Shown here: positions 1 through 18,330 of the stretch, piece after piece
Numbering within the stretch: the stretch's first letter is position 1
Layout of the letters: each line of letters starts with the position of its first letter
Virus record (IMG/VR): IMGVR_UViG_2545824717_000010
Strand: one strand, 5' to 3'
Length of the DNA: 23,357 bases
Source of the DNA: a virus
Taxonomy: Duplodnaviria > Heunggongvirae > Uroviricota > Caudoviricetes
Program-made: the position numbers and the translations under genes
Notes under the pieces: generated by a model
The model's input: the letters and a program-made list of their open reading frames with translations, nothing else
Told to the model about the DNA's origin: nothing
Databases searched by the model: none

Positions 1-1002
1 TTACCCTCTATTGTCAAAAGGGTTCAATTCAACAGCAGCCTCTAAATGACCTGGAGCAAAATGCGCATAACGCATAGTCATTTTTATATCGCTATGCCCC
101 AGTATTTTTTGCAACACAAGAATATTTCCGCCCCGCATCATAAAATGACTGGCAAACGTGTGACGTAGCACATGAGTTAATTGCCCATCAGGAAGCTCGA
201 TCTTCGCTCTCTTAATTGCAGCGTCAAAAGCCTCATAACATGGTGAAAATAGCGCTCCTCGTTTTTTAGGAAGCATAGCCTGCAATTGAGGTGAAATCGG
301 TACAGTGCGGTTCTTCTTTCCTTTAGTTTTAACAAATGTGATTCGACCGGGCAGTACTTGAGATTGCTTTAATCCTTCTGCTTCACTCCACCGAGCACCC
401 GTCGCAAGCCCAATACGGACAACAACCCCCAAATCTTTATTCCGTGACTCATCACACGCAATCAGAAGGCGCTCAATCTCATCTACATACAGAAACGCCA
501 GTTCCTTTTCTTCCTCACGAAACTTGCGAATACCAGTCAGGGGGTTTTCACCAGACCACTCCCCAAGGCGCTTCAGTTCGGCAAAAACAGCATGTAGATA
601 TGACTGCTCGCGATTAACGGTTGCTTCACTAAGTTTTTTCTTCCCCTTGGGATTCCATTCTCCAGATAGCCTTCTTTCCCGATAAGTAGCAAACATATTT
701 TTGTCAAACTGAGAAGCAAATGGATCTCCCAGCCTGGAACAAATCGCCTCAAGTTTGACTTTGCGCTCTGCACCAGAGGACAAGGTTTTACCGTACATCT
801 CAAACCAACGAGCAATCAACTCAGAAAGACGAGGACCAGAACCATCTTGAAACTCGTCTCCAACTCTACTATTCATTAAACGGCGCTCATAAGAGAGCGC
901 CTCACTTTTTGTCGCAAACTGTTTACGAATGCGTTTTCCCGATGCCCCGTAGGGATAACATTCGCAAAGCCATTTACCTGATGGAATCTTACGAACCGAC
1001 AT
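1..1002 (-). CDS. int: Tyrosine integrase, P2 family
   Basis: 333 aa; C-terminal recombinase motifs (LATGARWSEA, HVLRHTFASHFMMRGGNILVLQKILGH, MTMRYAHF with catalytic Tyr); strong resemblance to P2 Int as recalled. Stop codon sits at window positions 1..3. Confidence 0.9.
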   Translation of the reverse strand: MSVRKIPSGKWLCECYPYGASGKRIRKQFATKSEALSYERRLMNSRVGDEFQDGSGPRLSELIARWFEMYGKTLSSGAERKVKLEAICSRLGDPFASQFDKNMFATYRERRLSGEWNPKGKKKLSEATVNREQSYLHAVFAELKRLGEWSGENPLTGIRKFREEEKELAFLYVDEIERLLIACDESRNKDLGVVVRIGLATGARWSEAEGLKQSQVLPGRITFVKTKGKKNRTVPISPQLQAMLPKKRGALFSPCYEAFDAAIKRAKIELPDGQLTHVLRHTFASHFMMRGGNILVLQKILGHSDIKMTMRYAHFAPGHLEAAVELNPFDNRG

Positions 1003-5744: not shown

Positions 5745-8570
5745 ATGACGACAGAGTACATCAGGGACTGGCAACAACCGCGCCACGCAGTAGGACGTGA
5801 AGGAACGGAGATCCCCGCACCTGAATCCGCACTTTCCTCCTGGCTGGATGCCTACCGGGCAGAGAACGAGCGCCGCCAGGAAATGGCTGATGCGGCGTTC
5901 TCCGCCACGCCGCTGGGCAACCTGATTAATAAAAGCCTGGACGCACAGGAAAAACAGGACAAAACAATCACACTGGCAGGAGACGCCAGAAAACAGGCAC
6001 GCGGCGCGGTAGATGAGGCCATGGCCTCACTGCGCCTGCTGCCGTCCTATCTGCGCGATCCGCTTATTCGCCACCTCTCCTTCCTGCGCAAAAAACAGGA
6101 AGCCGATCGTCAGAAAGGAAAAAACGCCAGGCAGGCAGAACGCTATGCGCGTGGGACCCTGCGCAAAATATTCGAACGTCTGGAGCGCACCGATCACCGC
6201 TGGCTGACATCGGGTTATCGCTCCCTTGCCGGACGTGACCGCCTGGACGATTTGCTTTCCCTGCCGCAACTCAACAAACACCAGATACAGACGCTGGCCA
6301 CCATGACGGCGGCGATGTTCAGCAGCACCTTCGAAAAACTCTGCGATGGTTTTGGCGCGACTGATGGCGAGCTGACCATGGATGTAACGCTGAAGGTGTA
6401 TCAGATGCTGGCCCGCATGGCATTACATCTGCACACCATGCCGCCACATTATGACGCACTGACAACAGACAAAGACCGGAGGAACGAACCAGACACGGAG
6501 CTGCTGCCGGGCGCAATTCTTCGCCTGACCTGTGCGGAATGGTGGAAGCGCAAACTGTGGCTTTTACGTTGCGAGTGGCGGGAAGAACAACTCCGCGCCG
6601 CCTGTCTGGTTTCCAGAAAAACATCGCCCTATCTGAGCCAGGACGCGTTAAGCGAGTTTCGCGCACAGCGCGAGAAAACACGCGATTTCCTGAAAAGTTT
6701 CATGCTGGAAAACGAAGACGGGTTCACGATTGATCTCGAGACAGTGTATTACGCGGGAGTAAGTAACCCGGTTCACCGTAAGGCAGAAATGATGGCCACC
6801 ATGAAGGGGCTGGAACTTCTGGCCGAAGCCCGTGGCGACAAAGCGGTGTTTCTGACTGTCACCTGCCCGTCAAAATACCACGCCACAACAGAGAACGGTC
6901 ATCCGAATCCCAAATGGAACGGGGCCACCATGCGCGACTCCAGCGATTATCTGGTTAACACGTTTTTTGCGGCGGTCCGCAAAAAACTGAACCGCGACGG
7001 CCTGCGCTGGTATGGCATCCGCACGGTGGAGCCTCACCATGACGGCACCGTGCACTGGCATATGATGGTCTTTGCTCATCCGGAAGAAATCGACAGCATC
7101 GTGGCCATCACCCGCGATATTGCCATTCAGGAAGACCGCCACGAGCTGGGCAATGATATTACTCCGCGCTTTAAGGTGGAGTATGTCGACGGCTCAAAAG
7201 GCACACCAACCAGCTATATCGCGACCTACATCGGAAAAAACCTGGACAGCCGCGCCGTCGATGGCATCGACCCGAAAACGGGCAAGCCACGCGTTGACCA
7301 CGAAACCGGAAAATCAATGGCCGAGAGCGTGGAGCGCGCCATCGGCTGGGCGCGCCTTCACCGGGTCCGTCAGTTCCAGTTCTTTGGCATCCCCTCCCGT
7401 CAGGTGTGGCGTGAACTGCGCCGCCTTGCCAGCCAGATGGCACGCAATCCGGAAGGCCCGCAACGGCTGAAAGATGATGCAATGGATGCGGTACTCGCTG
7501 CCGCCGATGCCGGGTGTTTTGCCTCCTACATTGAAAAACAGGGTGGCGTGCTTGTTCCACGCAAGGACTACCTGATTCGCACCGCCTACGACCTCGCAGA
7601 TGAGCTGAACGATTACGGCGAACAGAGCGTACAGATTTACGGGATCTGGTCACCACTCATCGGGGAATCCTCCCGTGTGTGCACGCATCCGGATAACTGG
7701 AAGTTGGTAAGACGTAAACCAGAACCAGAAGACAACGCCCACGAAAATGGTTTTGACCTTCAGGGCGGCCCTGCCGCCCCTTGGACTCGTGGCAATAACT
7801 GTCCCCGTGTACAGGAAACAGGCAACAGCGGGACAGAACAGTCGAAAGAACGGCCAGCACCGTGGCCGCAGCTTCCTGACGGCGTTGAAGTGAACGAATG
7901 GATGCGCTCACTGAAACGGCACGAACGCCGGGCGCTGATGCGTTCGCTTCGTGACAAACAGGCAAAAAACAGCAGTGATGAAATGCAGAGCTGGACACAG
8001 AGCCGCAAACAGCAGCGGCCTTTGCCTGATAACCACGAATTACTCGCTAAAGAATGGCGGGAATCTGCCGAATCTCTCGGCCTGCATATCGGTGAACAGC
8101 AGATGCAGCACCTGTTACGGGGAGGCAGCCTGTACGTTGACGGCAGCATCATTGCACCGCAGGGATTTGAAATTGTACGCAAACCGGATACCCGCCCGGC
8201 CAGCCGAATCACGCAGCTCTGGCAGCGCCTGAGCCGTAATCACGGCGTAAGCAGCACAGAGATCCGTCATAACCCGGTCGCCAGCTATCTGGCACAGCTG
8301 GGGGCATCAGACCCCGAAGCCGCCGCACGTCTGGCATCCACACTTCAGCAGGACCAGAACACCATGAAAACCCCCGTTACCGTGCTTTCTGACATGCTGC
8401 GCGCCATCCGTGACGCAGAGCACGCACAAAGAATCAATGAAACCACTGAACGCGCCCGCCGCAAGGCTACTTTGCTCCAAAAGAGAGGCAAACAGCACTT
8501 TAGTAATCAAAATGATGATGAGAAAAAACAATTACAAAGTTGGATATGCCTTTTCCATCATGAGGGATGA
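5745..8570 (+). CDS. A: Replication initiation endonuclease (rolling-circle, HUH class), P2 gpA homolog with extended C-terminus
   Basis: 941 aa; HUH metal motif VHWHMMVF (about 7050..7080); tyrosine motif YIATYIGKN (about 7210..7236); position before the cargo locus as in P2. Longer than P2 A as recalled (about 760 aa). Confidence 0.85.
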   Translation: MTTEYIRDWQQPRHAVGREGTEIPAPESALSSWLDAYRAENERRQEMADAAFSATPLGNLINKSLDAQEKQDKTITLAGDARKQARGAVDEAMASLRLLPSYLRDPLIRHLSFLRKKQEADRQKGKNARQAERYARGTLRKIFERLERTDHRWLTSGYRSLAGRDRLDDLLSLPQLNKHQIQTLATMTAAMFSSTFEKLCDGFGATDGELTMDVTLKVYQMLARMALHLHTMPPHYDALTTDKDRRNEPDTELLPGAILRLTCAEWWKRKLWLLRCEWREEQLRAACLVSRKTSPYLSQDALSEFRAQREKTRDFLKSFMLENEDGFTIDLETVYYAGVSNPVHRKAEMMATMKGLELLAEARGDKAVFLTVTCPSKYHATTENGHPNPKWNGATMRDSSDYLVNTFFAAVRKKLNRDGLRWYGIRTVEPHHDGTVHWHMMVFAHPEEIDSIVAITRDIAIQEDRHELGNDITPRFKVEYVDGSKGTPTSYIATYIGKNLDSRAVDGIDPKTGKPRVDHETGKSMAESVERAIGWARLHRVRQFQFFGIPSRQVWRELRRLASQMARNPEGPQRLKDDAMDAVLAAADAGCFASYIEKQGGVLVPRKDYLIRTAYDLADELNDYGEQSVQIYGIWSPLIGESSRVCTHPDNWKLVRRKPEPEDNAHENGFDLQGGPAAPWTRGNNCPRVQETGNSGTEQSKERPAPWPQLPDGVEVNEWMRSLKRHERRALMRSLRDKQAKNSSDEMQSWTQSRKQQRPLPDNHELLAKEWRESAESLGLHIGEQQMQHLLRGGSLYVDGSIIAPQGFEIVRKPDTRPASRITQLWQRLSRNHGVSSTEIRHNPVASYLAQLGASDPEAAARLASTLQQDQNTMKTPVTVLSDMLRAIRDAEHAQRINETTERARRKATLLQKRGKQHFSNQNDDEKKQLQSWICLFHHEG

Positions 8571-8755: not shown

Positions 8756-9601
8756 ATGACAAAGCCTTCTCATTTTAGAACCCCTCTTCGTTATCCGGGA
8801 GGTAAGGCAAAATTCTTGCCACATATTGAACAAATACTCCGCAACAATGATCTCATTGGTGGATGTTATGCTGAACCTTATGCAGGTGGAGCCGGTGTAG
8901 CATTAGGTTTGCTCCTTAACGGTCTTGTTGAAAATATCTTCATAAATGATATTGATCCTGCCCTTTATTCTTTTTGGTTTGCAGTGGTTAATCATAACGA
9001 TCTGTTATGTGAAATGATTGATGAAGTTCCTGTGACTATTGAAAATTGGCATACTCAAAAGGAGATACTCCTAAACAATGATAAATATAGTATGCTTGAA
9101 GTCGCATTATCTACTTTCTTTTTAAATAGAACAAACCGTTCAGGAATACTTAAGGCTGGCGTTATTGGAGGGAAAGAACAAAAAGGACCATGGAAGTTAG
9201 ATGCAAGATTCAACAAAAAAGAGTTAATTAAAAGGATTGAACTAATTGGTGCATATAAGGAGAAAATTTACGTATCGAATTTTGATGCTGTAGATTTTCT
9301 GCTACACCAAAAAGCATTGCTACCCAAAAATAGTCTAATATATCTTGATCCACCTTATTATGTTAAAGGAGCAGAGTTATATAGAAATTTTTATAAACAT
9401 GATGATCATGTAAAAATCGCTAATACACTACGGGAAATTCAACTACCTTGGGTTGTGTCTTATGACAATGTGCCTGAAATAAAAAGCATATATCATGAAT
9501 TCAATATGACTGATTATACGCTTAATTATACTGCACAAGATAAGAAAAAAGGTCTAGAAATTATCATTTATAATCATGGTATAAAAATCCCTGACATTTA
9601 A
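8756..9601 (+). CDS. N6-adenine DNA methyltransferase, D12/Dam family (alpha class)
   Basis: 281 aa; N-terminal RYPGGK motif; SAM-binding motif I EPYAGGAGV (about 8870..8896); catalytic motif IV DPPY (9347..9358); markedly AT-rich versus flanks. Target sequence cannot be inferred. Confidence 0.85.
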   Translation: MTKPSHFRTPLRYPGGKAKFLPHIEQILRNNDLIGGCYAEPYAGGAGVALGLLLNGLVENIFINDIDPALYSFWFAVVNHNDLLCEMIDEVPVTIENWHTQKEILLNNDKYSMLEVALSTFFLNRTNRSGILKAGVIGGKEQKGPWKLDARFNKKELIKRIELIGAYKEKIYVSNFDAVDFLLHQKALLPKNSLIYLDPPYYVKGAELYRNFYKHDDHVKIANTLREIQLPWVVSYDNVPEIKSIYHEFNMTDYTLNYTAQDKKKGLEIIIYNHGIKIPDI

Positions 9602-9618
9602 ATTTAAGGATGATATAG

Positions 9619-11316
9619 ATGATTAAAGAAATTAGTTTTAAAAAATTTAAGAAACTGATAGATATTGACTTCTCATTCAATGAAGACATCAATATAATAT
9701 CAGGAACCAATGGGACATGTAAGACAACATTGCTTCATTTAATTAGCAATGGTTTCCAAATGCCACCATCTCGATCACAAAATTATTCAAATAGTAATTG
9801 TGTTAGAGTTATAAAATCTATAAACAAAATAGCCAACCCCAAAATGGAAGCAATTGTTAGGGAATCAAAAAATTACACCGATCCGGCAGAGGGAACAAAA
9901 GGTGTGTTATTTTCTATTAACTATTTGGATCATAGCACACTAGACTTCAGAAAGCACAACTCAAAAAATCCAGACGAAGCGCAACGGTATGCTATCAAAC
10001 CAGTATACCCACGCGGAAAAGAAAAACAATCACTTCCAGCTAAACCAGTTTTATATCTTGGATTATCGCGACTATTCCCAATTGGTGAAACTAAAGACGA
10101 CGCCCTTACAAAAATTCCGTTAAACCTACCAGAAGAGTATGTTGGTTATATATCGAAAATATATAATGAACTTTTGGGAATTAATATTATAAATATAGAA
10201 TCAAACAATATCGGTGATTTTAAAGCTGGCCCATTATTTGATACCGATAACCCAGCAATTGATTCTAATACCATATCATCCGGGGAAGACAATATATTCA
10301 TTATAATCAAGGCATTAGTTAGCCTTAGGTATTATTTTGAATCACTTATTCAATCCACTGATCAAAAAGAAAGCATTCTGTTAATAGATGAATTTGATGC
10401 CACTTTACATCCTTCTTTACAGATAAGATTATTAGATAAAATTTATCAATACGCAAAAGATTATAAGATTCAAGTATTTTTCACAACGCACAGTCTGACA
10501 TTGCTAGAGTATGCTTTTCATAAAAAATACCATGTTGTCTATCTAATTAACAATATTACAAAGGCTCTGCTTTTGGATAATCCTGATATATTAAAAATAA
10601 CAATGTATCTGAAAACACAAACAAAGGATGAGATATACACAAGGAACAAGATACCAGTTTTCACGGAAGATGAAGAAGCTCGCTTTTTATTTAATGAAAT
10701 ACTTGGTTATTGGATAAGCAAATATCCAAATTTTGCTATAGTTAGTAATTCATTTCACTTAATTGATTGTTTCATTGGTGCAGACAATTTAAAAACTATT
10801 TTTAATGATTCTCATCTTAAGGAAACCTCGTTAAAATCAATTTGTATTCTTGATGGAGATCACAGCCCTGAGGATCAGAGAGGAATTATATCACTGCCGG
10901 GTGAAAAAGCTCCAGAACAATTGATATTTGAGCATTGTGAGCACCTTTATAATACCGACGACTCTTCCTTCTGGGAAAATCAGGATATAATTAACAATGG
11001 TTTTTCGAAAGAGTTATACTTACTCAAGATACGTCCTCAATTACAATCAATTGAAACTGAAATTCAGAAAAGAAAAGACAACCATGAGTCTACATCCGGT
11101 TTAAGAAGAAGATTAAATAAGAAAATATTCAATCAGCATATTGAATTCTTTAGAATGATTACAAGAAACTGGTTAGACAAACCAGAAAATCAGAAATCTC
11201 TCCAGTATTTTTACAATGGATTACGATCCTTATTCTACCGGGTTACACCAACAAACGGCATTGACAGAAAAATTTGGGATTTTGACTATAACAAAATCAT
11301 TAAAGAGGATAAATAA
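9619..11316 (+). CDS. ABC-type ATPase fused to a TOPRIM-like nuclease domain (OLD/PARIS-like architecture)
   Basis: 565 aa; Walker A GTNGTCKTT (about 9703..9729); Walker B LLIDEFD (about 10381..10400); TTHS motif; C-terminal region with conserved Glu (VFTEDEEA, about 10654..10680) and DxD (ILDGDH, about 10846..10860) consistent with TOPRIM; starts 17 bp after the MTase stop; very AT-rich. Confidence 0.75.
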   Translation: MIKEISFKKFKKLIDIDFSFNEDINIISGTNGTCKTTLLHLISNGFQMPPSRSQNYSNSNCVRVIKSINKIANPKMEAIVRESKNYTDPAEGTKGVLFSINYLDHSTLDFRKHNSKNPDEAQRYAIKPVYPRGKEKQSLPAKPVLYLGLSRLFPIGETKDDALTKIPLNLPEEYVGYISKIYNELLGINIINIESNNIGDFKAGPLFDTDNPAIDSNTISSGEDNIFIIIKALVSLRYYFESLIQSTDQKESILLIDEFDATLHPSLQIRLLDKIYQYAKDYKIQVFFTTHSLTLLEYAFHKKYHVVYLINNITKALLLDNPDILKITMYLKTQTKDEIYTRNKIPVFTEDEEARFLFNEILGYWISKYPNFAIVSNSFHLIDCFIGADNLKTIFNDSHLKETSLKSICILDGDHSPEDQRGIISLPGEKAPEQLIFEHCEHLYNTDDSSFWENQDIINNGFSKELYLLKIRPQLQSIETEIQKRKDNHESTSGLRRRLNKKIFNQHIEFFRMITRNWLDKPENQKSLQYFYNGLRSLFYRVTPTNGIDRKIWDFDYNKIIKEDK

Positions 11317-11553
11317 TGTATTCTAATAGGATATAAACATCAAAGCTATATTTTTTACACATATCAAGAGTAAAAAATAATTTAACTTTTACATAACGAC
11401 CTCTTTTACAAATAAGTAGAAAAGGTCGTTATAACTCTCATCTCCATAGCATGTAATTTTCTTTGCATATTTTCACATAACAGTCAGGGATGTATTTATA
11501 AGCAACGTCGTATACATAGGCTCAATTTTTCTATAAATAAGCACTCCGTTCGG

Positions 11554-11583
11554 TTTGCACAATAGTGCACAAATTTGCACAAT
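11554..11583. repeat. Three tandem 10-bp direct repeats (TTTGCACAAT / AGTGCACAAA / TTTGCACAAT)
   Basis: Read directly; units 1 and 3 identical; one-helical-turn periodicity; located at the AT-rich to GC-rich transition on the right side of the cargo island. Confidence 0.6.
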
Positions 11584-11952
11584 TTTTTTGAACGACTTTT
11601 GCCCTTCCGGCCCGCATGGCGGCTGGATCCGTCAAGGATCCGTGCGTGCACAAAAAAACGCGCTTTTTCTGCGCGCAGGTGACGGGGGAACAGCCCGCGT
11701 TTCAGGGGGTAAATAGCATTCCCTGAACGATGTCGCAGAGACACAACAGAATGGCCATATTTCTCACGCTGAGCATGAAAAAGGCGTGAGGGCTTTTGAT
11801 TTGATGGGGTGAAAGGTAAGGCCGTCAAAATCGCACTGAGGCAGCGAGAACATACAGTCAACGCGGTGGAATTGCGTAAGAGTCTGACCGTCGATGGTGG
11901 CGATAAACTGGAAGGCGTCGTGAAATTATCTGATTGATACAGGAGCTGGAGA

Positions 11953-11981
11953 GCCGGGGCATAAATTTTTTATGCCCCGGC
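11953..11981. repeat. Perfect 13-bp inverted repeat GCCGGGGCATAAA-TTT-TTTATGCCCCGGC
   Basis: Read directly; no U-tract on either side, so not a canonical intrinsic terminator; about 100 bp upstream of the 12081 gene. Confidence 0.6.
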
Positions 11982-12080
11982 GAAGCAGCAGACAAGCGAA
12001 GCGCGTCAGCGATACGGCACCTTGCCGACCATACTTCATAAGTGCAAAATACGAGCAAAGAAATCAATGGAGGCTGTCTT

Positions 12081-12605
12081 ATGGTCATTAATTACAAGCA
12101 GTTAAGAGAAAAACGGGAGCAGGTAAAGGAGAGCTTTCGCCGCAATGAAGATCTGACCCCGCTTGTACGCCTTGCCCAGGGCATTGTTGATGCTTATGAA
12201 ATCTCGCTGGAGCTGCCATCACAGACCTGGACAGATAGCGACGGTAATCGCCAGCATTACGTTTCATGCGGACTGGAAGCAGCCGAAGGATTTCGCAGAA
12301 TGCCTTTATCCCAGATCCCTGCCGCTACCCCCAAAGCACGGGGCAGCAATGATGAGCGAAAACTGACTTTTAGTATTGAAACGGTGGTTGACGACACACC
12401 TGGCGAAGTCGCGTTCGTACACACTCCTGTTTCGATCGCAATGTATAACGATGAAATACAGGTTCGCGTTAATAATAATATCGTGCCACTTAAAGAAGGT
12501 AATTCACCCTACACCACCGTTTGTGAAGCCATTCAATATTACGTTCTCTCTGAAATTGATAATCTCAAGCCTGACGGCACCCAGAAAATGGTTCAACTCT
12601 GGTAA
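12081..12605 (+). CDS. Hypothetical protein (unassigned cargo gene between packaging region and portal gene)
   Basis: 174 aa from ATG at 12081 with RBS GGAGG 7 nt upstream (the track ORF starts at 12042 in the same frame); followed by an intrinsic terminator; no family recognised. Confidence 0.55.
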   Translation: MVINYKQLREKREQVKESFRRNEDLTPLVRLAQGIVDAYEISLELPSQTWTDSDGNRQHYVSCGLEAAEGFRRMPLSQIPAATPKARGSNDERKLTFSIETVVDDTPGEVAFVHTPVSIAMYNDEIQVRVNNNIVPLKEGNSPYTTVCEAIQYYVLSEIDNLKPDGTQKMVQLW

Positions 12606-12611
12606 AAAGGA

Positions 12612-12636
12612 CAGCCCCATCACGGGGCTGTTTTTT
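12612..12636. terminator. Bidirectional intrinsic terminator between convergent genes
   Basis: 7-bp GC stem CAGCCCC/GGGGCTG with 5-nt loop followed by TTTTTT on plus strand and by TTTTT on the minus strand (complement of AAAAA at 12604..12608); overlaps the Q stop codon. Confidence 0.7.
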
Positions 12637-13666
12637 CATCAAGAAGAGCATAAGAGTTAAAACGGATCACCTCTTCGCCAAGCCAGTCATTGATGTGCTT
12701 CATAGCCTCCATGACGGGCATCAGCTCGTTAATTGCGTAAACCCGCGCTGCCTTCTCCACATCGCCAAACGCACTTTTTTCGCCCGGCATCGCCCCCATC
12801 AGTTGCGGCGGAACGCGGTGCGCAGCCAGCACATCATCACGGGATGCCGCCTTAACATTCATGAATTCATCTTTTGCGGTGATCTGCTGGAACGGCAAAA
12901 TTTGCACCCCCTCTTTGCCCCCGTTGGGCGCATGAATGAGCACGTTTTTAAACGCACCACCACCACGTGCCCCCTGTAGCGTTTCTTTCAGGGAGTCCAT
13001 GCTTTCGCGGTTTACCTGCGCTGCACCGATGTAGATGATGCACCCGGCGTGGGATCCGTTGTCGTAGTACAGTTTTCTGAACATGTCCGCCGAATGAGAA
13101 AGGCTGGCCGAGAGTAATGCGCCAAGATATTCCGGCATGCCGTAGATTTCCTGGTTAATATCCGGATTCATCAGGTGGCACACTTTGCCAGGACGAAACT
13201 GAAACGCGTCCTTGCCATCCTGCACATACCACCATGATTCAAGATCGCTTCCGCGTCGCATGTATTTCGCCAGGGCGTGCCGTAATTTAAGCGGTTCGCC
13301 GAGCATATTGCTTCGAAGCTCAAGGAATGCGTTACCGAACACAAACCAGTCCAGCGCCAGCGCCGAGAAATCCTGCCGGGAAAGCAGCGGGTGCGGGATG
13401 TAGCAACCGAGTAATACATTGCGCTTAAAGTAAAGCGCAGACTGATGCCAGGACGTTTGCCGGGCAGCTCTTGCCAGACCGTACCAGTCCACCGGGGTTT
13501 CATACCACCGCCCGTTATCAGCACAGTACATATTGTCCAGCAGGTCATGCCCGGTCAGGCGATAAGGACCATCAAATGTGAATGCACTGAGCGATGATTC
13601 TTTCCTGAGCGCATCAGCGAGATCAATGCGTGAACTCATGCGCACTTTTTTATTTTTTCTGCTCAT
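12620..13666 (-). CDS. Q: Portal protein, P2 gpQ homolog
   Basis: 348 aa, similar length to P2 Q; position adjacent to the terminase gene; recalled sequence similarity. Confidence 0.85.
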   Translation of the reverse strand: MSRKNKKVRMSSRIDLADALRKESSLSAFTFDGPYRLTGHDLLDNMYCADNGRWYETPVDWYGLARAARQTSWHQSALYFKRNVLLGCYIPHPLLSRQDFSALALDWFVFGNAFLELRSNMLGEPLKLRHALAKYMRRGSDLESWWYVQDGKDAFQFRPGKVCHLMNPDINQEIYGMPEYLGALLSASLSHSADMFRKLYYDNGSHAGCIIYIGAAQVNRESMDSLKETLQGARGGGAFKNVLIHAPNGGKEGVQILPFQQITAKDEFMNVKAASRDDVLAAHRVPPQLMGAMPGEKSAFGDVEKAARVYAINELMPVMEAMKHINDWLGEEVIRFNSYALLDEKTAP

Positions 13667-15417
13667 CAGAACTCCATAACTGTGAAACGCTCGTTTTCTC
13701 CTTCGCCGCCAATTGGTTCGTTAATGACAGCAAGCATGGTTGCCCACGCAAGGTCGCCGTGGCTGATCCCCCTCGCGCGGTCCGTTTCGTAAGTGATAAA
13801 GCCGCCCGGTGTTTTCACCTTACGCACGGCGTTAAAGGCTGCGACCAGCTCGCGTTCGGCGCGATCGTATTCCCACCGCCCGGCACGCATTATTTGCAGC
13901 ATTTTCAGTACCAGCGACCGTTTTGATGACAGCGTGAAGGTGTACGGAATAGCAGCAGGGAAAAACCGTTTCACTATCTGATAAACAGCCTCCCCGTTCC
14001 CGCCCGTCACATCAATGCCGATGTGTTCCACGTTGTAGCGACACGTGAACTCTTCAATGACTCTGGCCTGTTCTTCAAACTCCAGCCCCTGAACGCGTCG
14101 CGTCTCCACCGTTCGAAAACGGCCACCAGGAACAGACGGAGGAACCACCACGGACACAGCGCCGCTGTCGCCGTTGCCACTGCTGCCGTTTGCGTCATAC
14201 CCAATCCATACCGGACGATTCCCCATCGGGCGGGGAGCAAAAGGTTTCCAGTCTTTCCAGTCGTCGTATCCGTCAACGCCGCAGCCAATCAGGATATTCA
14301 GGTTAAATGCCGATTCCCCTTCGCGGACAAACTCACACATGTAGAGATTGAGGAACTCGTCTTCGGTGTTTTCATCGCGGATTTCGTCAATATCGGTGTG
14401 TTTCCAGCCGTGATTAACCACATCTTCCAGCGTGACAATCTGCCGCCATGTCCGGTCAGGGCAGATAAGTCCGTTATGCAGCGTTTTCCAGTCCACAGAA
14501 AAACGCTGGCGTTTATGCGAGGCCTTTTTCTCGTTCCAGCGGTCGCCGTTCCAGTAGGCGTATGCCTCGTGCGTTTCGGTGGATGGCGTGGAGAAGTAGG
14601 TGCGCCGCAGTCCGCTGAGGGTTGCCATAGCGCCAGCCACCTTGCGCAGTTCAGCAAAGCGACTGACCCAGAAAAATTCATCAAAATAAAAATTGCCCGT
14701 ATAGGACTGTGCCGACGCAGCAGAAGTGCCGAGAAAATGCAGCTCTGCGCCGTTGGAGAGGATGATTTTATCGCCCCCTTTCAGCTCCACATCAACTTCA
14801 GCCGCGGCCTTCTGAATAATGCTTTTAAACTGGAACGCCTGACGACGCGACGCAGACAAAAAAATCTGGTTACGCTGGTAAGGTTGCGCCACATCGTCAC
14901 GCAGCGCCATCAGCAGCGCTTCCTGTGCAAAATACCAGGTCGCCCCAATCTGTCGGGATTTCAGGATCATCCTGTTACGTATCCCGGCTTCCCTGCAAAG
15001 GGTCAGGGAGTCAAACCAGCCCCGCTGATGCCACTCCAGCCTGCTGATGATTTTTTCCCGCAGTGCGGCAATCTGTTCCGGCGTGAAATGATTTTTGAGT
15101 TTTTTCGCCCGGCCTTTCTTTCCTGCGGCCATCACATCCGGCTGGCCATCATGCAGCTTTTTAAGCTGCCGGGTCAGCAGGTCTATTTCCTTAAAGTCAC
15201 CGCCTGTTTTATTCTGTTTTTCAGTAAGCTGGATGAGGCGCGCATCAATGGACTGCGTGACACGCTGCACGGGTGGCGTTTCATCCCACTGGTCGCGTTT
15301 TTTCCACGCATAAATCGTGTTCGGGTTTATTCCCATCAGACGTGATATTTCTGCGGGCGGATAACCCTGCCAGTAAAGTTGCCGCGCACGCTGGCGCACA
15401 AAAGCGTCCTGAATCAT
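13666..15417 (-). CDS. P: Terminase large (ATPase) subunit, P2 gpP homolog
   Basis: 583 aa; N-terminal MIQDAFVRQRARQLYWQGYPPAEISRLMGI matches P2 P as recalled; divergent from the O operon. Confidence 0.9.
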   Translation of the reverse strand: MIQDAFVRQRARQLYWQGYPPAEISRLMGINPNTIYAWKKRDQWDETPPVQRVTQSIDARLIQLTEKQNKTGGDFKEIDLLTRQLKKLHDGQPDVMAAGKKGRAKKLKNHFTPEQIAALREKIISRLEWHQRGWFDSLTLCREAGIRNRMILKSRQIGATWYFAQEALLMALRDDVAQPYQRNQIFLSASRRQAFQFKSIIQKAAAEVDVELKGGDKIILSNGAELHFLGTSAASAQSYTGNFYFDEFFWVSRFAELRKVAGAMATLSGLRRTYFSTPSTETHEAYAYWNGDRWNEKKASHKRQRFSVDWKTLHNGLICPDRTWRQIVTLEDVVNHGWKHTDIDEIRDENTEDEFLNLYMCEFVREGESAFNLNILIGCGVDGYDDWKDWKPFAPRPMGNRPVWIGYDANGSSGNGDSGAVSVVVPPSVPGGRFRTVETRRVQGLEFEEQARVIEEFTCRYNVEHIGIDVTGGNGEAVYQIVKRFFPAAIPYTFTLSSKRSLVLKMLQIMRAGRWEYDRAERELVAAFNAVRKVKTPGGFITYETDRARGISHGDLAWATMLAVINEPIGGEGENERFTVMEF

Positions 15418-17529: not shown

Positions 17530-18330
17530 ATGATTACTCCTGCACAGCAACACTGGCAGAACGTGATGGCACAGCGCGCAGGCCGGGCGAATGAAGGCGT
17601 GGACCACGCCGCGCGTACCGCGCATGAAGAGGTGCTGTATCGTCTGCGTCTGGCACAGGCCCGGCTTAAGGGCGTACAGGCCAGAAGCGCGAAAGCCGCC
17701 ATCAAAAAAGAGTTGTTGCCGGACTTTTCCGGCTGGATTGAAGGAACGCTGGAGGCTGACGGCGGGCAGCAGGATGAAGTGATTGCCACGCTGATGGTGT
17801 GGGCAATTGACTGCGGCGATCTTCCGCTGGCGCTGCGTATTGGTACGTATGTGGTCCGTCACAACCTCATTATGCCGGATAACTTTGGACGTACTGCCGC
17901 CACGGTACTGACCGAAGAAATCTGTAATCCGGTACTGACGCAGGCCGGGACGGATGCCGACGCGGATTTGTCCGCCTTTATCGAACCACTGGACACCCTC
18001 CGGGAGATTGTCACCGACCAGGACATGCCGGACGAAGTGCGCGCCAAATTATGCAAGGCGTGCGCCTTTGCCCGTCGTGGCCTGACCGATGCAGACAACA
18101 TGGCCTTATCACTGAAGCTGCTGCGCGAAGCGATGCACCTGAACCCGAACGCAGGTGTGAAACGCGAGATTGCAACCCTTTCCCGCGCCCTGAAAAAAGC
18201 CGATTCCGCAGCCGCACCAGAAGATGCCAGCACACCGCAGGCGCAGGACGAAAGCAGCAAAAGTAAAAAGACAACGCGGAAGCCTGCAACACGAAAAACC
18301 ACCGCGACGCAGAAGGCGAAGCGCGGTTAA
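17530..18330 (+). CDS. M: Terminase small (endonuclease) subunit, P2 gpM homolog
   Basis: 266 aa; position after N; basic C-terminal tail. Confidence 0.8.
   Translation: MITPAQQHWQNVMAQRAGRANEGVDHAARTAHEEVLYRLRLAQARLKGVQARSAKAAIKKELLPDFSGWIEGTLEADGGQQDEVIATLMVWAIDCGDLPLALRIGTYVVRHNLIMPDNFGRTAATVLTEEICNPVLTQAGTDADADLSAFIEPLDTLREIVTDQDMPDEVRAKLCKACAFARRGLTDADNMALSLKLLREAMHLNPNAGVKREIATLSRALKKADSAAAPEDASTPQAQDESSKSKKTTRKPATRKTTATQKAKRG

Follow-up and report, generated by a model that had tools for sequence, protein, structure and literature searches.

A probable cos site with phased TGCAC boxes, common to P88-like prophages and satellite-type islands of the P2 family

Which part, if any, of the non-coding DNA between the cargo genes and the portal gene of a P2-family prophage serves to package the genome? 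We addressed this for a window of 23,357 nucleotides (nt), the whole stretch of viral DNA that was analysed (IMG/VR record IMGVR_UViG_2545824717_000010). This DNA is a prophage of the P2 family and of the P88 (Xuanwuvirus) type. A preliminary description had proposed positions 11317–12080 as a packaging region containing a cohesive-end (cos) site. Our analysis narrows this proposal to about 165 of the 764 bp: the segment 11556–11720 is very probably the cos site of a P88-like (Xuanwuvirus-type) P2-family prophage, whereas the cargo tail, the spacer and a hairpin that were included originally lie outside it. This reading is based on gene order, on homology to the defined ends of P2, 186 and P4, on conservation and on the sharing of the segment with satellites. 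The module contains the following elements.

11556–11582, plus strand: three TGCACAA boxes starting at 11556, 11566 and 11576, with an exact spacing of 10 bp; candidate terminase recognition array.
11583–11589, plus strand: T7 tract straight after box 3, kept across lineages.
11600–11624: GC-rich element with partial dyad symmetry, CCCTTCCGGCCCGCATGGCGGC, moderately conserved.
11625–11632 and 11636–11643, plus strand: two copies of GGATCCGT with 11-bp spacing, in a lineage-specific variable spacer.
11647–11659, plus strand: proximal cos box TGCACAAAAAAAC, consisting of TGCAC and an A7 tract, 31 nt before the predicted nicking site (cosN).
11670–11677, plus strand: conserved GC flank TGCGCGCA, left of the predicted cleavage site.
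11678–11696, plus strand: predicted cosN or cohesive-end sequence GGTGACGGGGGAACAGCCC, unique in the window, with flanks GCGCGCA and GCG.
11697–11720, plus strand: right flank of cos, starting with GCGTTTCAGGGGGTAAAT, and end of the satellite-shared module.

The order of genes in the window runs from a GPA replication gene through the cargo, the cos site and the portal gene to the large and then the small terminase gene. The cos site has the gpA-proximal accessory hotspot on one side and the portal gene Q on the other, and the reading direction of Q and P is away from cos. This is the position reported for P2-like phages, in which cos is placed between the gpA-proximal defence hotspot and gpQ (PMC9122126). 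The P2 annotation, with cosR after old and cosL before Q, matches the arrangement in the window, and the earlier statement that the P2 cos lies between the old locus and Q agrees with the annotated cohesive ends of that phage. A cos site at such a position in a P2-like phage is expected; that of the window is a sequence variant of which we did not find the ends determined in the literature, and the P88 paper does not mention cos.

The 19-nt cohesive ends of the P2 type reportedly go back to Ziermann and Calendar (1990), the source that others cite for them. For P2, 186 and P4 the 5′ cohesive ends are given as GGCGAGGCGGGGAAAGCAC / GGCGTGGCGGGGAAAGCAT (cited in PMC3931495 and PMC9122126). The database records of these three start and end at the cohesive ends. 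We joined the right and left ends and aligned them with the window and its relatives, an alignment that the preliminary description had suggested as a check and that revealed a shared layout. In P2, 186, P4 and the window, three phased TGCAY boxes at about 100–122 nt upstream of cosN are followed by a variable segment of about 55 bp that includes a GC-rich, partly palindromic element, then by a proximal TGCAY box with a run of A's about 30 nt upstream, and finally by a G-rich 19-mer between GC-rich flanks. The proximal box TGCACAAAAAAAC is the counterpart of TGCATTAAAAC in P2, P4 and 186. In a direct comparison, GGTGACGGGGGAACAGCCC and the P2 cohesive end are identical at 13 of 19 positions. 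The same 19-mer is present without change in Enterobacter phage phiT5282H and with a single difference, at position 18, in an island of Escherichia coli that is described below (L008). A G-rich segment weakly resembling the P2 cohesive end had been pointed out from the start; the spot was right, but it is located at 11678–11696 and not, as then given, 3 nt further at 11681–11699. A clear cos homolog elsewhere in the window was looked for, and no other cos-like sequence was found.

Conservation outlines the same segment. Homology to P88, PhiR44_2, 569R5 and others, as detected by megablast and blastn against phage genomes, starts at 11553–11556, i.e. at box 1, and everything leftward is cargo-specific. 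Relatives from IMG/VR (103 unique sequences, anchored on boxes 2 and 3) are unrelated to each other left of box 1. Their conservation is high over the boxes and T-run (11556–11590), over TGCACAAAAAAAC (11646–11658) and over GCGCGCAGGTGACGGGGGAACAGCCCGCG (11670–11700), moderate over 11600–11613 and lowest over 11615–11645, and it decays after about 11700–11715. In phiT5282H, a Novemvirus, only 11556–11699 is kept, at 75% identity, with GCGCAGGTGACGGGGGAACAGCCC identical. Of 5426 complete E. coli genomes, 1148 contain the module; the closest match extending across the cargo junction is in E. coli E110019. The lack of any variable cosN site among class-A relatives was discounted as evidence for conservation, as these sequences had been selected on the cosN core.

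The 10-bp tandem repeat TTTGCACAAT/AGTGCACAAA/TTTGCACAAT noted earlier is present at 11554–11583, and its conserved core is TGCACAA. This heptamer occurs six times in the whole 23 kb, four of these copies falling within 11556–11653, with the fourth at 11647. The pattern TGCAC-N5-TGCAC-N5-TGCAC is found once in the window and in 0 of 100 shuffles. Relative to 11678, the boxes of the window are at −31, −102, −112 and −122.

The geometry of the boxes was examined in two sets of sequences that were chosen by cosN alone. One genome per species was scanned with the 22-nt cosN core, which gave 19 loci; the three boxes are at the same distance from cosN in all 19. The named genera carrying this core are 11 in number (Kluyvera, Erwinia, Pantoea, Mixta, Kosakonia, Enterobacter, Apirhabdus, Citrobacter, Izhakiella, Escherichia and Salmonella), a twelfth label, Vagococcus, being counted as a probable contaminant contig. 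Viral contigs were scanned in the same way with the P2/186 cosN 18-mer, yielding 110 unique upstream regions. Here TGCAT is present at −29 in 106, at −101/−100 in 91, at −111/−110 in 82 and at −124 to −120 in about 80, and the DNA between the boxes varies freely. Given these fixed offsets in P2-type cos regions and in the window, the '3× 10-bp tandem repeat' is the TGCAC-type form of a positionally fixed cos element of the P2 family. A 55-bp conserved cos core has been reported (PMC3931495). The family-wide boxes at fixed offsets are outside this '55-bp conserved cos region' of the open literature, in which we did not find them confirmed.

The contig labelled Vagococcus sp. WN89Y (L141, NZ_JBQPOM010000071.1) contains a P88-like prophage with the same cos and a portal fragment 98% identical to that of the window. 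Vagococcus being a Firmicute, this is probably an enterobacterial contaminant contig in the assembly. In P2 itself (33424–33469), the start sites annotated for the old-tin mRNA imply a minus-strand −35 hexamer, TTGAAT, that overlaps the first distal TGCAT box, so that the cos array and the cargo promoter have DNA in common in that phage.

Both copies of GGATCCGT are present at the positions originally given, but they fall in the least conserved stretch and are restricted to the P88-like lineage: unrelated sequence takes their place in Novemvirus-type (GGTCTGACCCCGGATCGG), satellite (CCCGGAGGGCG) and L009-type cos regions. Of the repeats once put forward as cos elements, the conserved phased 10-bp repeat is thus retained, while the GGATCCGT pair is a spacer feature specific to the P88-like lineage. 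Small GC-rich palindromes that are lineage-specific are located between the distal and proximal boxes at 11600–11624 in the window and at aligned positions in L007, L008, L009, L032, P4 and 186. Examples are CCAGTACTGG, CCAGCGCTGG, CGCCAG-AG-CTGGCG and GCGCC-N6-GGCGC, and a common motif (C/T)TGGCG was read by eye from the alignment. These dyads between the box groups could be protein sites with dyad symmetry or have a structural role. The idea that the dyad at 11600–11624 is a covarying hairpin was dropped, the pattern across lineages, assessed by eye, being irregular. A terminator-like hairpin on the minus strand at 11658–11676 was likewise considered as a conserved counterpart of the hairpin next to cosN in P2 and P4, and was abandoned since it is not kept in L007, L008 and L009. 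The consensus for integration host factor (IHF), WATCARNNNNTTR, has no match within 11540–11720 and five matches elsewhere in the window.

The module is also present in elements that are otherwise unrelated to the window. An island of about 12 kb adjoining hpt in E. coli JML285 (L008, 131–12640) matches the window in blastn only over 11556–11720, with 80.6% identity over 170 bp, and no further DNA similarity to the 23-kb window was detected. It has genes for an integrase and a toprim primase, an Icd-like gene and an ogr/Delta gene, and neither a portal nor a terminase gene. Among the 19 species loci, 13 have the layout of a helper phage (A, cos, Q, P), while five (L137, L143, L146, L149 and L152) have that of a satellite, lacking both Q and P. 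At these loci there is a gene resembling P4 epsilon or the P4 integrase gene, or, about 2 kb from cos, a distant homolog of the P2-family capsid gene. L136 is a probable sixth satellite by sequence similarity only, with no tblastn hit. Enterobacter hormaechei B17-3 and Izhakiella australiensis each contain one element of the helper type and one of the satellite type with the same cos core. For P2 and P4, cos is the sole homologous region (PMC9122126). The sharing of 11556–11720 repeats this situation and is the strongest functional argument short of experiment.

The satellite-type islands of about 12 kb (L008, L126, L137, L143, L146, L149 and L152) form a family that has only the cos module in common with the P88-like and Novemvirus-like helpers. 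Their gene content is that given above for L008, with P4 epsilon-like or integrase-like genes in some of them, and portal and terminase genes are absent. They encode a distant homolog of the P2-family major capsid protein (35–39% to gpN; phrog_70), preceded by a 236-amino-acid open reading frame (ORF) without a family hit. In the literature searched, we found no description of P4-like satellites with a P2-type capsid gene of their own.

A mechanism can be outlined by homology with P2, 186 and P4. The terminase would be made up of gpM as its small and gpP as its large subunit. It would recognize the TGCAC array, in which the three distal boxes (−102, −112 and −122) lie on one face of the helix, the fourth is proximal (−31) and each group is followed by an A/T tract. 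Candidates for binding the boxes are gpM (PF05944) and the N-terminal helix–turn–helix (HTH) domain of gpP (PF06056/HTH_23). Staggered nicks at cosN, GGTGACGGGGGAACAGCCC (11678–11696, ±2 nt), would then produce 5′ cohesive ends of about 19 nt, with the left end of the packaged genome on the portal side and its right end formed by the cargo island. In this scheme both the box-binding protein and the exact nick positions are inferred.

The alternative that survives best concerns the boxes rather than the site as a whole. They may be bound by a factor other than terminase (for example a host nucleoid protein, a phage regulator or a recombinase for cargo exchange at the hotspot), with terminase requiring only the core of about 55 bp around cosN. 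We consider this unlikely. In its favour, the cargo junction coincides precisely with box 1 in every relative, the other two distal boxes are better conserved than this one, the core described in the literature is 55 bp long (PMC3931495) and cos-linked recombination at the hotspot has been speculated upon (PMC9122126). However, the distance from the boxes to cosN is fixed in the TGCAC as well as the TGCAT lineages while the intervening DNA varies, satellites keep the boxes in spite of different neighbouring genes, and the module lacks an IHF consensus. Selection alone would moreover be expected to place a cargo junction where an essential element begins.

Several points weigh against assigning 11556–11720 as the cos site. 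The cosN sequence is only 13/19 identical to that of P2, its class has one base fewer than the L009/P2 type from one conserved flank to the other, and its register is ambiguous by 2 nt: homology places it at 11678, and the distance to the proximal box, which is 29 in the P2 type, places it at 11676. In the phage collection, no record has its start or its end at the predicted cosN. LR595891, the one linear record with a start in this region, opens elsewhere than at the predicted cohesive end. The core in the literature found is confined to 55 bp (PMC3931495), and the distal boxes may be dispensable or used otherwise. Finally, the link between the box variant (TGCAC or TGCAT) and the terminase lineage is confounded by phylogeny. 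In LR595891 (Xuanwuvirus P88_4B11) the sequence is opened at a point corresponding to 11599/11600, inside the cos module, with the T-run on one side and the GC-rich element on the other; its start appears to be an arbitrary linearization, because the record is circularly continuous with its own end.

If terminase is indeed what binds the boxes, their variants may have a further meaning. TGCAT is the form found in P2, 186 and P4, and TGCACAA that in P88-like and Novemvirus-like phages. We tentatively propose, as an idea that is somewhat less likely to be right than wrong, that the phased TGCAY boxes together with the proximal box are a cosB-like specificity determinant of P2-family terminases, that the box variant decides which satellites are packaged, and that the TGCAC type is exploited by a distinct satellite family with a distant P2-family capsid gene of its own. 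A P2-like prophage lineage represented by L009 (7000–7130) and L032 has TGCAC distal and proximal boxes and the same flanks, together with a nearly P2-type intermediate cosN, GGCGAGGCGGGGGAGCAAG. The combination points to a possible independent variation of box type and cosN type. The gpM and gpP of L009 are 52% and 67% identical to those of the window, compared with 37% and 46% for those of P2; the box type hence tracks the terminase lineage, an association that does not discriminate between explanations.

The DNA on both sides of the cos site, and the genes beyond it, are arranged as follows.

1–1002, minus strand: integrase-side ORF (ORF map).
5745–8570: GPA-family replication gene (ORF map and Pfam).
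8756–11316: cargo island of two genes with low GC content (∼0.3), in the P2 defence hotspot (ORF map and Pfam).
11317–11555: AT-rich 3′ tail of the cargo (defence-hotspot) island, GC content ∼0.29, outside cos.
11721–11952: non-coding spacer, P88-like-specific and neutral-looking.
11953–11965 and 11969–11981: perfect 13-bp palindrome, portal-distal hairpin.
12010–12644, plus strand: insertion of 635 bp relative to P88, breakpoints by blastn.
12620–13666, minus strand: portal gene Q (ORF map and Pfam).
13666–15417, minus strand: large terminase gpP with N-terminal HTH (PF06056/HTH_23; ORF map and Pfam).
17530–18330: small terminase subunit gpM (PF05944; ORF map and Pfam).

The cargo, which stops 240 bp short of box 1, has the appearance of a defence system of two genes. 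Its first gene encodes a D12 adenine methyltransferase (PD-Lambda-5_B match at 8e-122), and this is followed by a 565-amino-acid AAA_15/AAA_21 ATPase resembling PtuA, AriA and GajA. In the AT-rich tail, 77 nt past the stop codon of the ATPase gene, an imperfect 17-nt inverted repeat (88% complementary) is located at 11393–11432. This hairpin could be the terminator of the cargo operon, though it is without a T-run.

Between cosN and the palindrome (11698–11950), 107 of the 253 columns are variable among 61 unique relatives. The perfect 13-nt inverted repeat that the preliminary description had reported at 11953–11981 is there, and with its flanks it folds at −29 to −32 kcal/mol. That it is a functional component of cos, a site for terminase or a host factor comparable to cosQ or the I elements of lambda, is nevertheless very unlikely. 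It is perfect, very stable and about 260 bp from cosN, and it has been retained in spite of an insertion before the portal gene. Yet none of the satellite, Novemvirus-type and L009-type cos regions compared contains it, all of which carry the same or similar cosN and boxes, and this part of the earlier proposal is given up. In P88_4B11 the palindrome is found 25 nt beyond the portal stop codon, and P2 tQ and 186 tW are annotated at that position. There is no U-tract after the palindrome on either strand, and a scan with the terminator consensus did not call it. The palindrome at 11953–11981 is the ancestral portal-distal hairpin and, judged by position alone, possibly a terminator or a stabilizer of the mRNA 3′ end.

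The 635-bp insertion, which is found in the window and in four relatives of 99% identity, separates the palindrome from Q. Its ORF at 12081–12605 encodes 174 amino acids with a match to phrog_5091, a family of unknown function, and without a Pfam or PADLOC hit. The insertion brings in a bidirectional terminator at 12611–12631, with the stop codon of Q in its loop, and replaces the last ∼8 codons of the portal gene.

Two further explanations of the region fare worse still. It is highly improbable that this intergenic DNA does no more than supply promoters and terminators for the cargo and the inserted ORF, with packaging from a site elsewhere or by a headful mechanism. Terminator-like hairpins and promoter-like hexamers do occur, though at about chance frequency, and the old promoter of P2 overlaps the first TGCAT box as described above; but the module is common to satellites and to distant lineages with different neighbouring genes, its sequence lines up with the cohesive ends known from the annotations of P2, 186 and P4, the terminase is of the P2 cos type and the window offers no second candidate. 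The notion that the minus-strand ORFs or the plus-strand ORF 11809–11937 are real genes and the repeats coding sequence can be dismissed as having almost no chance of being true, since, for all the inconsistent 'hypothetical protein' annotations over this DNA in relatives, the minus-strand ORFs run across the break at 11555 or the breakpoint at 12010, and in the plus-strand ORF variable sites are spread about evenly over codon positions and 1-nt indels occur.

The ORFs themselves can be described briefly. The two on the minus strand had been suspected to be spurious, and they are. The 121-amino-acid ORF 11496–11861 spans the homology break at 11555 and the length polymorphisms of the A/T tracts of cos, and the 76-amino-acid ORF 11858–12088 spans the insertion breakpoint at 12010. 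The small plus-strand ORF 11809–11937 (42 amino acids), which is annotated in some relatives, was rejected, with variable sites numbering 17/20/19 by codon position and a 1-nt indel in four of the 61 unique relatives. Annotations over the DNA of these ORFs differ in strand and frame between near-identical genomes. The possibility, raised at the outset, that the repeats belong to a coding sequence conserved in relatives was followed up in this way, and the ORFs over the region were judged not to be genes.

With the cos site at 11556–11720, the packaging site is fixed for P88-like P2-family prophages and with it the ends of the virion genome and the origin of the map. The right boundary of the defence-gene hotspot is set to the base, as the cargo stops where box 1 starts. 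Three evenly spaced short boxes emerge as a fixed part of cos sites across the P2 family and its satellites. TGCAY boxes at fixed offsets are a candidate for how P2-family terminases recognize cos, and they may explain the matching of satellites to helpers. The compact module of about 165 bp is, in addition, a candidate for the construction of cosmids or transducing particles with a helper of the P88-like type.

Compared with P2, 186 and P4, the site of the window occupies the same position between the accessory hotspot and the portal gene and is likewise common to helper phages and satellites. The ends of P2, 186 and P4 were defined experimentally, whereas those of the window are predicted from sequence. 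The distal boxes read ATGCAT..GTGCAT..TTGCAT in P4, GTGCAT..GTGCAT..TTGCAT in 186 and TTGCAT..GTGCAT..TTGCAT in P2, with a spacing of 12–13/10, while the window has TGCAC(AA) with a strict 10/10 spacing. An inverted repeat abuts cosN in P2, P4 and 186, and the window has other sequence there. The distance from cosN to the ancestral portal stop codon is about 315 bp in the window, in contrast to about 165 bp in the P2/186/P4 type. The palindrome resembles P2 tQ and 186 tW in being, in P88-type relatives, a GC-rich hairpin just past the portal stop codon; it differs from them in the window in being without a U-tract and displaced by about 640 bp from Q by the insertion. The cos site of lambda consists of cosQ, cosN and cosB, with R sites and an IHF site. 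It has no sequence relation to the module of the window, which is without an IHF consensus and has its box array on the side of cosN that corresponds to the right genome end, opposite to the side on which the portal and terminase genes lie. P2-type terminases also differ in using circular monomers as substrate. What the two share is a nicking site with adjacent short repeated boxes, presumably for the small terminase subunit.

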